The position numbers and the translations under genes were made by a program. Below the pieces are notes generated by a model. That model saw only the letters and a program-made list of their open reading frames with translations. It searched no databases and had not been told where the DNA came from. Positions 35,727-64,000 of a stretch of DNA of 64,000 bases are shown here, in pieces. How positions within the stretch are numbered: the stretch's first letter is position 1; each line of letters opens with the position of its first letter. The stretch comes from a phage. The stretch lies in the NCBI GenBank assembly GCA_036930585.1, contig GCA_036930585.1_3066.1; one strand, 5' to 3'.

Positions 35727-35751
35727 AAGGGACCTTTCGGTCCCTTTTTAT
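35727..35751. terminator. bidirectional terminator between convergent gene 24 and rnlB
   Basis: hairpin agggacctttcggtccct flanked by A-run and T-run. Confidence 0.6.
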
Positions 35752-48505: not shown

Positions 48506-48508
48506 CAA

Positions 48509-48540
48509 TGGGGACCTTTCGGTCCCCATATTTTTATTTA
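48509..48540. terminator. bidirectional terminator between gene 54 and the alt-side genes
   Basis: hairpin ggggacctttcggtcccc followed by atatttttattt. Confidence 0.6.
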
Positions 48541-48824
48541 CGGAATGAAATGAAAGCAGCAACTGAAGCAACTAAACTGTCTTCAATATAAACTTCAATT
48601 TTTACCGGAGCTTCTGACTCAAATTTACCTGTTACTACACCCTGAAAAATACTTTCAGTCTGTTCTGGCTTTGAAAAATTTTCAGAAGGAAAAATTCCAA
48701 ATTTTTTATCTGTTCCGAAAATTTTGATAAATTCATCATAAACTGCTTCATTAAAAGCGTTATCAGCAGGAATAACGCCTTCAACTACAAGTTCTTGACC
48801 TAAAAAGCGTAAAGAAGATTTCAT
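48534..48824 (-). CDS. hypothetical protein (96 aa), alt.-3 position
   Basis: ORF track; RBS GAGGAA; preceded by duplicated promoter element. Confidence 0.55.
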   Translation of the reverse strand: MKSSLRFLGQELVVEGVIPADNAFNEAVYDEFIKIFGTDKKFGIFPSENFSKPEQTESIFQGVVTGKFESEAPVKIEVYIEDSLVASVAAFISFRK

Positions 48825-48832
48825 TTTGTGTT

Positions 48833-48887
48833 CCTCATGTTATGTCAGTAAGACTACTATAACACAACACGAGGGACTTGTAAACTA
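48833..48887 (-). promoter_or_regulatory. early promoter within stem-loop; 53-bp element duplicated at 62881-62933
   Basis: minus strand GTTTAC (plus gtaaac 48881-48886), 17 nt, TATAGT; imperfect inverted repeat spanning the RBS. Confidence 0.5.
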
Positions 48888-49242
48888 CATTTTGAACTTT
48901 TTAGTACGCGTAATAGGCATGCGTCGATTTTATACTGTTTCATTGTTTGAAGAGCAGTATCAAAAACAGCATTAATGACACCAATTGGATTTCCACCCAA
49001 GTTTTTAAGCTTAACTAATGATAGTTTCTCATTAACACCTATCATTACGATATGCATCATTTTGTCGCCTGGTTTAACGTTTTATCTGTATCACCGCCAG
49101 AGGTGTATGTACAAAATCTAAATCCAGGAAGCACGCTTTCTTCGCCGGCTTGAATAGCAAAAATTTGTGGTATTTTATGCTTAGGATTTAAGTTAACAAC
49201 CGGCGCCGAAGCGCCGTCAAATAATTATGTAATAAGTTCCAT
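48857..49242 (-). pseudogene. decayed partial duplicate of the alt 5' region (alt.-1/alt.-2 position)
   Basis: MELIT then stop at 49242-49225 mirrors Alt MMELITELFD; in-frame 67-aa piece MMHIVMIGVNEKLSLVKLKNLGGNPIGVINAVFDTALQTMKQYKIDACLLRVLKS parallels Alt residues about 65-120. Confidence 0.6.
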
Positions 49243-49245
49243 GAT

Positions 49246-51317: not shown

Positions 51318-51325
51318 TATTTATA
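51318..51325 (-). promoter_or_regulatory. T4-type late promoter TATAAATA for alt
   Basis: plus tatttata 51318-51325, about 20 nt upstream of alt ATG. Confidence 0.5.
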
Positions 51326-55697: not shown

Positions 55698-56030
55698 TTA
55701 TTTTACTACTTTCCAATACTGCATGTCAAGTTTACCGACTTTTTTCATCTTCTTAATTAAGCGTTCGGCACGTTGGCGAGCTGTAACATAATGCCATTCG
55801 CCTAATTCATTTTGTTCAATTTTTCCAACGATTACTGTATTCAATTCATAAATCCAACCAGTAAAGAAATTATGAACTTGAATTGTAAAGGTGAAATCTG
55901 TTCCCATACCTTCTGTTGTTTCTACTTCAATAATATCACCTTCAACTGCCATTAAGAACCACATAGTTTCATTATATTTACCGTTGAAGCATTTAGTTTT
56001 AACTGCAGCGTTCAGATTAATCGTTTTCAT
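55698..56030 (-). CDS. hypothetical protein (30.8 position)
   Basis: ORF track, 110 aa; RBS AAGGAGAATAAAATG. Confidence 0.55.
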   Translation of the reverse strand: MKTINLNAAVKTKCFNGKYNETMWFLMAVEGDIIEVETTEGMGTDFTFTIQVHNFFTGWIYELNTVIVGKIEQNELGEWHYVTARQRAERLIKKMKKVGKLDMQYWKVVK

Positions 56031-56040
56031 TTTATTCTCC

Positions 56041-56095
56041 TTTGTTTGTGTAAGATAATACTATCACAAAGGAACCGTACTGTAAACAACTTTGT
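56041..56095 (-). promoter_or_regulatory. early-promoter stem-loop module (PeSL-like), same family as 813-1511
   Basis: gtaaac 56083-56088; shares the box tgtaaacaactttgtg and the loop motif TACTATC with the IP-locus modules. Confidence 0.45.
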
Positions 56096-59048: not shown

Positions 59049-59569
59049 GTTGATCCCAGCTCCTTACTTTCAACGTTTTTAACTAATTTGACAGAAACTA
59101 ATTCAGCATCTTGGGTAATCATTACCGGGCCTTCTTCATACTCTTCAAGATATTCTAGAGCTTTCTTTTTAGCTTCTTCCTTTGTATCAGTTTGAGCATA
59201 GATATAAAACATGCAACCAGTAATACCTACTACTTTCCACTTAATTTCTTTATCAGTTTTAATTTCAAATTTACTGACAGAATCATCTTTTTGAACTTCT
59301 TCGAAAAAAGAATATTCTAACATATAAGCAATTGAAAATAACGGGCTAACTTTATAGGATTCACCCATTACATCAACAGCTTTATACCAACAATCATCAA
59401 TTTCGCGTTTAATGCTAATAACATTCTTTGCAGGGTCAATTTTTACTTTAAATGAATTTTCCCCAATAAACTGGGCGATTCGTTTATTAGCCCCGCAAGT
59501 TTCATTAAAAATATCTTTATACCCAGTTTTAAAGCGATAAACCTTATCTTCTTCAAACCATTCGCTCAT
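59042..59569 (-). CDS. hypothetical protein (cd.3 position)
   Basis: ORF track, 175 aa; RBS GAGGAA. Confidence 0.55.
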   Translation of the reverse strand: MSEWFEEDKVYRFKTGYKDIFNETCGANKRIAQFIGENSFKVKIDPAKNVISIKREIDDCWYKAVDVMGESYKVSPLFSIAYMLEYSFFEEVQKDDSVSKFEIKTDKEIKWKVVGITGCMFYIYAQTDTKEEAKKKALEYLEEYEEGPVMITQDAELVSVKLVKNVESKELGSTC

Positions 59570-59574
59570 TTCAA

Positions 59575-59631
59575 TTTCCTCATTTGTTTTGGTAGAGCTA
59601 TAATATCACAACTCTACCGTAAAGTAAACCA
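59575..59631 (-). promoter_or_regulatory. early-promoter stem-loop module (PeSL-like)
   Basis: gtaaac 59624-59629; inverted repeat ggtagag/ctctacc enclosing TGATATTAT. Confidence 0.45.
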
Positions 59632-62027: not shown

Positions 62028-62377
62028 TTAGAAAGGTCCTGGATGTCTTCTGCGAACTTGTTGAAGGAGTTGTTGATTTGTTTTTCAACCAATCCTGGCT
62101 TATGAGCCACCACATCCGCCTTCTTTGCATCTTTGCGCAGTTTTTCATTTTCACGCTCAATAGCAGCAATTGCCTCACGATTTTTATTATTCATCGCATC
62201 AATATAATTATACTGAATTCGCAAATTATTTAATGCTAAGGCGTTTTCATTGGCCGTTTTTGTAATTTCAGTAACTGATGTTTCTAATCTTTCTACCTTA
62301 TTTTTTAAAATAATAGATGTTCCGCCAAATGCTATTACAAGTAATAGCAATCCAGCTGTAAAATTACTTACATGCAT
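62024..62377 (-). CDS. membrane-anchored coiled-coil protein (117 aa)
   Basis: N-terminal hydrophobic helix LLLLVIAFGGTSIIL then charged helical region. Confidence 0.5.
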   Translation of the reverse strand: MHVSNFTAGLLLLVIAFGGTSIILKNKVERLETSVTEITKTANENALALNNLRIQYNYIDAMNNKNREAIAAIERENEKLRKDAKKADVVAHKPGLVEKQINNSFNKFAEDIQDLSK

Positions 62378-62874
62378 AAAGTTTTAATAACCTCTATAAT
62401 ATCGTCTTGAGAAAGACCGTTAATTAAAATATGATGTTCAGCCGGAGATTTAGAAATTTTAAAGCACGCCGCAACATCTTCTGCCATATCCGATGCGCTA
62501 CGATTTGGATTACTAATTCCAAGACGATGCTTTCCTGTCAAAGGATTAACGATGATATAGCATTTGCAGCTATTGATATGAACATTAGGTTGAGTCTGAT
62601 TAATAAACACTTCACAATCATACTTAGCGAGTTGATTTTCTAAAAAGACTTTCATCTCCTCAACCGCATCAGGAAGCATATCACGGGCTTGCTCAAGACG
62701 ACGATTTCGATATTCTTTAATGGTTGTTTTCCGCTTTACTTGCTTAGCTAAATCTTTCTTAAGATCGGTGATATATCCAACTCGACGATTTCCTTTGAAT
62801 ACAGAAATCCCATCTGTAGTATCACCGTATGCTTCAACGACCATTTCAGTAGTAATGAGCTGCAAATCCATCAT
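62368..62874 (-). CDS. alc: Alc, inhibitor of host transcription; track ORF starts 4 codons upstream at 62886
   Basis: Position immediately downstream of rnlA as in T4; about 167-168 aa from MMDLQLITTEMVVEAYGDTTDG with GAGGGA RBS. Confidence 0.7.
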   Translation of the reverse strand: MMDLQLITTEMVVEAYGDTTDGISVFKGNRRVGYITDLKKDLAKQVKRKTTIKEYRNRRLEQARDMLPDAVEEMKVFLENQLAKYDCEVFINQTQPNVHINSCKCYIIVNPLTGKHRLGISNPNRSASDMAEDVAACFKISKSPAEHHILINGLSQDDIIEVIKTLCM

Positions 62875-62880
62875 AAAGTC

Positions 62881-62933
62881 CCTCATGTTATGTCAGTAAG
62901 ACTACTATAACACAACACGAGGGACTTGTAAAC
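62881..62933 (-). promoter_or_regulatory. early promoter within stem-loop; second copy of the 53-bp element at 48833-48885
   Basis: identical run cctcatgttatgtcagtaagactactataacacaacacgagggacttgtaaac in both places. Confidence 0.5.
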
Positions 62934-62936
62934 AAC

Positions 62937-64000
<1,064 letters not shown>

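Follow-up and report, generated by a model that had tools for sequence, protein, structure and literature searches.

Two copies of an early-promoter cassette in a T4-like phage, with a predicted helix that may confine translation of alc and alt.-3 to their own transcripts

Introduction

T4-type phages carry promoter-early stem-loop (PeSL) cassettes (Arbiol, Comeau & Krisch 2010, PMC2839356; Comeau et al. 2014, PMC4122927). Their stem-loops lie between the -35 and -10 elements or overlap the -10 element (PMC2839356), and the promoter consensus in PST/T4 is TTTACW-N17-TAYWAT (PMC4122927). The early promoters of T4 (Pe) form the 'uber' class, with a UP/-35/TGn/-10 organization (Hinton 2010, PMC2988021). 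A further arrangement is described for the T4 genes e, soc, 49 and I-TevI, in which a helix sequesters the ribosome-binding site (RBS) and a promoter lies between the two arms of that helix (PMC3014915, section 29).

Here, we analyse an exact 53-bp repeat in a 64-kb stretch of DNA (hereafter the window, meaning the whole stretch) from a phage of the genus Tequatrovirus (T4-like). The repeat lies directly upstream of two genes. The first, alc (62368..62871, minus strand), encodes a 167-aa inhibitor of host transcription and starts at the second ATG of ATGATG, as in the T4 annotation. Alc is an immediate-early product and terminates transcription on cytosine-containing DNA (PMC2988021). The second, alt.-3 (48534..48824, minus strand), encodes a non-essential protein of 96 aa and unknown function, for which deletion and escape mutants have been described (PMC11618068).

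By its description, the element is of a known kind and can be placed in the published PeSL class. It is a compact intergenic unit with an upstream stop codon, a sigma-70-like early promoter, a stem-loop with G-T pairs, a Shine-Dalgarno sequence (SD) and an ATG; it occurs in several copies per genome; and it is implicated in the movement or replacement of modules by recombination within shared motifs. The stem-loop sits where PeSL stem-loops are found, with the 5' arm filling the promoter spacer and the -10 element in the loop. The association of PeSLs with indels and module exchange is also found here: the region of the alt.-3 copy is variable, an alt paralogue has been deleted beside it, and the alt.-3 cassette is specific to the genus. 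The differences concern function and arrangement. A terminator or attenuator role has been published for PeSLs, whereas by sequence criteria the stems analysed here have no U-tract and their 3' arm is the SD. In addition, the two copies are 14 kb apart, flank essential genes and show no recombinant joint.

The cassettes also match the T4 Pe class in the GTTTACA -35 element, the 17-nt spacer, the TGn extended -10 element with TAnnnT, the location on the minus strand before prereplicative genes and, in copy A, the A-rich upstream region. On the basis of these motifs nothing essential appears to set them apart, the A-rich region being weaker in copy B. By analogy, the mechanism that we propose resembles that of the known RBS hairpins of e, soc, 49 and I-TevI. 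There, the SD and/or AUG are buried in transcripts started upstream, which is predicted here, with covariation at alc. In the known genes, transcripts from the internal promoter lack the 5' arm and are translatable; here, the position of the promoter predicts that its transcripts would lack this arm. In both cases, the structure is conserved in related phages. The difference is that the internal promoter of the known genes is a late one (TATAAATA), which delays translation until late, whereas alc and alt.-3 have an early sigma-70 internal promoter, which would confine translation to the immediate-early burst. Neither alc nor alt.-3 is among the genes named in the review of these hairpins (PMC3014915).

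Results

An exact repeat upstream of alt.-3 and alc

The window contains two exact occurrences of the 53-mer CCTCATGTTATGTCAGTAAGACTACTATAACACAACACGAGGGACTTGTAAAC, at 48833-48885 (copy A) and at 62881-62933 (copy B; plus-strand coordinates), about 14 kb apart. We found no further match in the window at up to three mismatches. The repeat finder extends the repeat to 59 nt with two mismatches (48830-48888 versus 62878-62936). An earlier note on this DNA had reported an exact 53-bp duplication upstream of the alt.-3 and alc reading frames, and this holds: both genes follow the repeat directly, and 100 shuffles gave no match to the 53-mer.

The regions of both copies have matches of 95-99% identity in around 500 phage records. 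Essentially all Tequatrovirus records are hit at two positions by a 67-nt query, and both copies were found in about 450-500 related genome records. T4 (AF158101.6), T2, T6 and RB32 have both copies, each within its own flanks. The alc copy of T4 is the identical 53-mer (AF158101.6 136284-136336), while its alt.-3 copy differs from that of the window at a single base (52/53). An assembly artefact and the absence of the copies from relatives, which had been named as possible grounds for dismissing the repeat, are thus not the case, since T2, T4, T6, RB32 and hundreds of other phages carry both. The exact repeat is ordinary phage T4 biology, i.e. two early promoter-plus-leader cassettes, and is neither an artefact nor a mobile element.

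Anatomy of the promoters and leaders

By their motifs, both copies are promoters of the sigma-70/T4-early type on the minus strand. Read on this strand, each copy is GTTTACA AGTCCCTCGTGTTGTGT TATAGT AGTCTTACTGACATAACAT GAGG. Both have TTTACA and TATAGT separated by a 17-nt spacer (10 of 12 consensus matches), with the TG of an extended -10 element one base before TATAGT, and both are among the best-scoring minus-strand promoter matches in the interval 47.5-64 kb. Copy B (62881..62933, minus strand) comprises the early promoter, leader and SD of alc and takes up most of the 65-bp rnlA-alc intergenic region. Its -35 hexamer TTTACA (inside GTTTACA) is at 62927..62932, its -10 hexamer TATAGT at 62904..62909 and its TG at 62911-62912; the predicted start site, placed by the usual spacing of about 7 nt, is near 62897. 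Copy A (48833..48885, minus strand) comprises the same elements for alt.-3 and overlaps the 3' end of the alt.-2 remnant open reading frame (ORF). Its -35 hexamer TTTACA is at 48879..48884, its -10 hexamer TATAGT at 48856..48861 and its TG at 48863-48864, which would put the start site near 48849. The earlier note had read the promoter as GTTTAC, 17 nt and TATAGT. The promoter stands, but not the spacing: 18 nt follow GTTTAC, and the canonical reading is TTTACA-17-TATAGT.

The sequence upstream of the -35 element is CTAAAAAGTTCAAAATGTA in copy A and CCCAGAAGGATACTAAGTT in copy B, the latter being less A-rich (as read without a scoring model). At the other end, the repeat finishes in the SD, and the start codons (48824 for alt.-3, 62871 for alc) follow 8-10 nt downstream in copy-specific sequence. 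At alc, the rnlA stop codon TAA, 4 nt, GTTTAC, GAGGG and the ATG are all found inside 65 bp. At copy A, the stop codon TAG of an alt paralogue adjoins GTTTAC in T2, T6 and RB32. The late-promoter motif TATAAATA is absent from both cassettes. So is the RegB cleavage motif GGAG from the Tequatrovirus SD, which on direct reading is GAGG. In the searchable literature, we found neither experimentally mapped start sites nor structure-probing or translation data for these two leaders.

A predicted helix between the promoter spacer and the SD

The promoter spacer is complementary to the SD region. In copy B, the 5' arm AAGUCCCUCGUGUUGUGUU (62909..62927, minus strand) lies in the spacer, and only RNA started upstream includes it. 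The 3' arm GACAUAACAUGAGGGACUU (62876..62894, minus strand) contains the SD GAGGG (62880-62884) and extends 5 nt past the repeat into alc-specific sequence. In copy A, the 5' arm is CCUCGUGUUGUGUU (48861..48874, minus strand), also in the spacer, and the 3' arm is GACAUAACAUGAGG (48833..48846, minus strand), which contains the SD GAGG (48833-48836). In the predicted folds of the read-through RNAs the SD is fully paired, with a minimum free energy of -33.7 kcal/mol (z -5.5) for copy B and of -23.3 kcal/mol (z -4.0) for copy A. The helix of copy A is weaker than that of copy B and has a C.A mismatch against its own flank. The RNAs that begin after the -10 element are predicted to be unstructured (z +0.08 and -0.49). 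Shuffling the spacer is an uninformative control for SD pairing, because pyrimidine-rich shuffles still pair with the SD, and we relied on the energy z-scores alone.

Relative to the predicted +1, the 5' arm is at -29 to -11, and the -10 element is in the loop. As the 5' arm is inside the -35/-10 spacer, it would be absent from transcripts of the own promoter, whose leader could not form the helix. Hence, the predicted helix can act only on read-through transcripts started upstream. The imperfect inverted repeat over the RBS reported in the earlier note is therefore recovered by RNA folding. Its placement after the promoter is wrong, the 5' arm being upstream of any own start site. As for the structure-based translational control suggested there, the idea fits the read-through RNA, in which the SD is predicted to be paired, but not the own-promoter leader, which is predicted to be unstructured (z around 0).

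The SD of copy B reads GAGGG at 62880-62884, whereas it is GAGG in T4, T2, T6 and almost all relatives. In the T4 helix a C bulges out; here, the additional G pairs with it, and the 19-bp stem is uninterrupted. Of 451 records, only that of phage ACG-C40 shares this G, and none of the 451 is 100% identical over 62860-62940. Within Tequatrovirus, the variants found are transitions compatible with G.U pairing, and folding of the sense strand is more favourable than that of the antisense strand by 4-9 kcal/mol. A scan with Rfam 15 gave no family at the gathering score anywhere in the 64-kb window.

Hairpins at the other early promoters of the window

All seven strict early promoters in the window carry a hairpin in the spacer/-10 region. 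In four of the seven, the hairpin brackets only the -10 element and leaves the SD free. Promoter-spacer hairpins as a class must therefore have another or an additional role, e.g. the attenuator or recombination roles of PeSLs.

Three of these promoters are in tandem cassettes at 812-1527 on the minus strand, with the G of GTTTAC at 870, 1168 and 1499. They are 61-87% mutually identical (repeat family D1) and precede three small ORFs of 61-85 aa. Their hairpins bracket the -10 element without involving the SD, and they differ while remaining self-complementary (AGATAGGGTA/TACCCTATCT, ATAGGGT/ACCCTAT and GATGAGGTA/TACCTCATC). At 59569-59629 (minus strand), the early promoter before a 113-aa ORF has a hairpin GGTAGAG.../...CTCTACC that brackets the -10 element; a 90-mer ending at this promoter has no match within 12 mismatches in T4 122000-139000. 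At 56030-56087 (minus strand), upstream of a homologue of gene 30.8, the spacer UCCUUUG of a strict early promoter pairs with the SD region CAAAGGAG. This is a second, unrelated SD-masking arrangement, and it matches T4 at about 130.2 kb.

Sources of read-through transcripts

The 3' part of rnlA (RNA ligase 1; 62937..64000, minus strand) lies just upstream of copy B. With no terminator between the two, transcription of rnlA must continue into copy B. We looked for a late promoter before rnlA as a source of late read-through and found none; the T4 promoter at this place is of the middle type (MotA box ATGCTTC). The late-promoter consensus TATAAATA is found before alt only, at 51318..51325 (minus strand), 20 nt upstream of the alt start. 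Judging from its sequence, it is a likely origin of late transcripts that read through into copy A. A late promoter before alt also fits Alt being made late and packaged.

The interval 48857-49245 is the remnant of a second alt paralogue (alt.-1/alt.-2 in T4). It includes an alt.-2-like ORF of 67 aa (48857..49060, minus strand) that runs through the promoter of copy A. The paralogue is full-length (685 aa) in T2, T6, RB32, slur02, IME340 and Shfl2, and deleted beside copy A in T4 and in the window. We considered whether the edge of the repeat is tied to this deletion and rejected the idea: the joint is about 22 nt upstream of the -35 element, and RB32 has an identical copy A beside a full-length paralogue. 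Downstream, the convergent genes 54 and alt.-3 have a G+C-rich hairpin GGGGACCTTTCGGTCCCC between them, at 48508-48529, with a T-run on the plus strand only. A 70%-similar copy of it is found at 35729-35744, 12.8 kb away (repeat family D9).

Conservation and covariation of the helix at alc

We collected rnlA-alc intergenic regions from eight other genera (GenBank) and from 40 IMG/VR loci retrieved via an alignment of the Alc protein, which gave 35 unique sequences. The organization GTTTACA, 5' arm in the spacer and SD-containing 3' arm, with spacer-SD pairing, is found in 27 of them, from Gelderlandvirus, Karamvirus, Jiaodavirus, Dhakavirus, Bragavirus and further lineages. The arms covary, for example as TCTCCATTTGG/CCAAATGGAGA, TCCTCATCAG/CTGATGAGGA, ACCTCTCATTTT/AAAATGAGAGGT and CCCCGTTTTGTTG/CAACAAAATGGGG. 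Accordingly, the SD variants GGAG, GAGG, GAGAGG and GGGG are accompanied in the spacer by CTCC, CCTC, CCTCTC and CCCC. In the MAFFT alignment (A2), a helix of 13 pairs has 83.6% pairing, compared with 34-56% after sliding of the partner, and both sides have changed in 10 of the 13 pairs. The helix has a covariation score of 0.414, a value reached by none of 500 shuffles, while the slid versions score at most 0.156. RNAalifold, run on the same plain alignment, found compensatory changes in seven of eight pairs.

Given this pairing and covariation relative to the controls, the complementarity between spacer and SD at alc is under selection across T4-like genera. In terms of these alignments, the pairing is kept by covariation across at least seven named genera, Tequatrovirus included. 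It is lost in Mosigvirus, Kanagawavirus and a few others (L052/L067, L068, L069/L071), which keep the promoter with an unpaired SD. Since several lineages keep the promoter in this way, the gate that the helix would provide is dispensable.

The covariation alone cannot separate an RNA helix from a DNA palindrome, because across genera the stems are mostly perfect Watson-Crick and show no bias between the sense and antisense strands (11/26; p = 0.96). The strand-asymmetry test is thus informative only within Tequatrovirus, and the argument for RNA over DNA rests on the SD being one of the arms and on the sense-strand G.U pairs of this genus.

The alt.-3 cassette as a probable transplant from alc

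The situation at alt.-3 is different. In six other genera, the alt.-3 promoter adjoins the alt stop codon and has only a short hairpin wholly within the spacer (of the type CACC-AAGGA-GGTG), with a free SD. The alc-type cassette at alt.-3 is therefore specific to Tequatrovirus. Conserved within-spacer hairpins with covarying stems occur upstream of alt.-3 in the six genera (L028-L033) and upstream of alc in Mosigvirus (L024, L057, L075), for example CACC-AAGGA-GGTG, GCAC-AAGGAA-GTGC and ACGT-CGAATGA-ACGT.

From these comparisons we infer that the spacer-SD helix is ancestral at alc, and that the alt.-3 copy looks like a transplant of the alc cassette; the outgroups would give alc as the donor. 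The edges of the repeat are the -35 motif and the ...CATGAGGA motif, which are common to both ancestral cassettes. This fits replacement by recombination, as the PeSL model proposes, and the likely route is recombination within these two shared motifs that replaced the segment between them. The region of copy A is variable, with at least 80% of it covered in only 91 of 504 records.

We also considered a reciprocal exchange between alc and alt.-3 in Mosigvirus. The identity of 79% is within the consensus background of 58-82%, and we make no such claim. In Mosigvirus DCP548 (L005 2960-3100), an early-promoter cassette located between homologues of ndd and denB precedes an unrelated small gene, and its leader from the -10 element to the ATG is nearly the same as that of copy A (TATAGTAGTCCTACTGAAACATGAGGAACACAAAATG). 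This resemblance in sequence suggests a leader module common to different genes in different genera.

Discussion

We consider it probable that the repeat represents a T4-type early-promoter and leader cassette of the PeSL class present twice, in which the helix limits translation to RNA from the own promoter and in which the alc version has replaced that of alt.-3. This reading starts from the repeat itself and its promoter motifs, from the predicted helices, from the covariation at alc and from the comparative distribution. To these it would add two start sites, a translational block, and a direction and mechanism of transplant. The cassette would run from the -35 element (GTTTACA) to the SD (GAGG), the sequence between -35 and -10 being complementary to the leader and the SD. 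Initiation at the own promoter (predicted +1 near 62897 and 48849) would give a short unstructured leader with a free SD. RNA started upstream would carry both arms and form a helix of 18-23 bp that buries the SD. Such RNA would come from rnlA and further upstream in the case of alc, and from alt and its late promoter in the case of alt.-3. Alc and Alt.-3 would then be translated essentially only from their own immediate-early transcripts, and their synthesis would stop upon the shut-off of early promoters, even though read-through RNA persists. In the ancestor of Tequatrovirus, the segment of the alt.-3 cassette from the -35 element to the SD would have been replaced by the alc version.

The repeat could be explained in other ways. 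Because GTTTACA, TGnTAnnnT and a purine-rich SD are common to all T4 early promoters, one might think of chance resemblance through the promoter consensus, or of a sequencing or assembly artefact. Yet the five other strict early promoters of the window match the repeat at only 25-29 of the 53 positions, which puts its identity well above the promoter consensus. The shuffles gave no match, and the recurrence of both copies, in their own distinct flanks, in several hundred independently sequenced Tequatrovirus phages excludes an assembly artefact. The probability of this explanation is virtually nil, and we regard it as already refuted. It is quite unlikely, too, that exact identity is maintained by ongoing and frequent gene conversion (concerted evolution). 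This would fit the 100% identity of the copies in the window, in RB32 and in one IMG/VR genome (52/53 in T4), the G/A polymorphisms that the two loci have in common at positions 15 and 31, and the presence at alt.-3 of both a 'B-identical' haplotype (the window, T4, RB32 and others) and a divergent 'T/T/A' haplotype (T2, T6 and IME340). The latter pairs slightly better with the downstream flank of copy A itself. However, among the 13 Tequatrovirus genomes with both copies, which differ by 0-5 positions between A and B, the mean A-B distance within genomes (2.31) is not below that between genomes (2.38; permutation p = 0.36), and the two copies of T2, like those of T6, differ at 5 of 53 positions. 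(A pattern scan of IMG/VR gave 10 loci only, and GenBank phage records were used instead.) Copy B is near-invariant, with a mean B-B distance of 1.35, so that identity amounts to copy A retaining, or having once acquired, the consensus, in a genus that overall has diverged by only a few percent. As the distances within and between genomes are the same, the exact identity seen here reflects both copies keeping the genus consensus. Since both copies occur in each of T2, T4, T6 and RB32, the genus can be no older than the duplication. The 'recent copying or gene conversion' proposed in the earlier note is thus not supported in that form, given the permutation result and the genus-wide presence of both copies. 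An older copying event is supported, since the alt.-3 promoter is different in six genera while the alc-type architecture is ancient at alc.

Other explanations concern the hairpin. The stem-loop might act as a PeSL terminator or attenuator that stops or weakens transcription from upstream and insulates each gene, the masking of the SD being incidental. This role was proposed by the authors who defined PeSLs, a PeSL stem-loop of RB49/phi1 cut lacZ expression like a strong terminator (PMC2839356), and there is a hairpin at every strict early promoter of the window, whether or not it involves the SD. We nevertheless regard it as unlikely here. The alc-type stems are followed by no U-run in any genus, their tails being A-rich (e.g. 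AAAACGAAAUG and UAUUGAAAUG), their base is rich in A-U pairs, and in 27 of 35 lineages it is the SD, and not a fixed distance from the upstream stop codon, that the 3' arm follows. In the window, the tails are UAUGAUGG (copy B) and ACAAAAUG (copy A), which lack the U-tract of intrinsic terminators, and neither copy was flagged by the terminator scan. Absent U-tracts mean that these stems are not classical terminators, and on such sequence criteria we reject an intrinsic (Rho-independent) terminator. Alternatively, the element might work as DNA, i.e. as a palindrome or cruciform that tunes the promoter, binds a dimeric protein or forms a recombination hotspot that shuffles cassettes. The largely perfect, strand-symmetric stems outside Tequatrovirus are compatible with this, as are the constant position of the 5' arm directly after the -35 element, with the -10 element always in the loop or the stem, the association of PeSLs with indels and mini-circle formation (PMC2839356, PMC4122927) and the coincidence of the repeat boundaries with shared motifs. 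A palindrome, however, has no need of the SD as one of its arms, which is what the 27 of 35 lineages have, at a varying distance from the -10 element. Moreover, the opposite strand of the Tequatrovirus stems has A.C mismatches in place of their 1-3 G.U pairs. As for recombination, chimeric queries for the deletion joint and the duplication joint of a crossover between A and B had no contiguous match in 500 Tequatrovirus records. This absence is expected, because the interval holds essential genes, e.g. 30 and 31. We thus find a DNA-level role very unlikely.

A translational gate carried by an early-promoter cassette remains the reading that we favour. Its broadest form can be put forward only tentatively: that the alc gate, conserved in at least seven genera, confines Alc to the first minutes of infection, and that the whole gate was transplanted to the unrelated gene alt.-3. 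If true, this would mirror, with an early promoter, the late switch of genes e, soc, 49 and I-TevI. Tying translation to the proximal promoter would be a simple way to end the synthesis of early proteins while read-through RNA persists. That some early-promoter hairpins (those of alc, alt.-3 and probably 30.8) use the RBS as one arm would be new for T4. An alt.-3 cassette derived from that of alc, with breakpoints in the shared -35 and SD motifs, would support the modular shuffling of PeSLs. The covariation-supported helix at alc and its transplant to alt.-3 are modest new details, and neither changes the general picture of gene regulation in T4. If the gate was indeed moved as a whole, they would provide a natural case of a regulatory cassette carrying its logic to a new gene.
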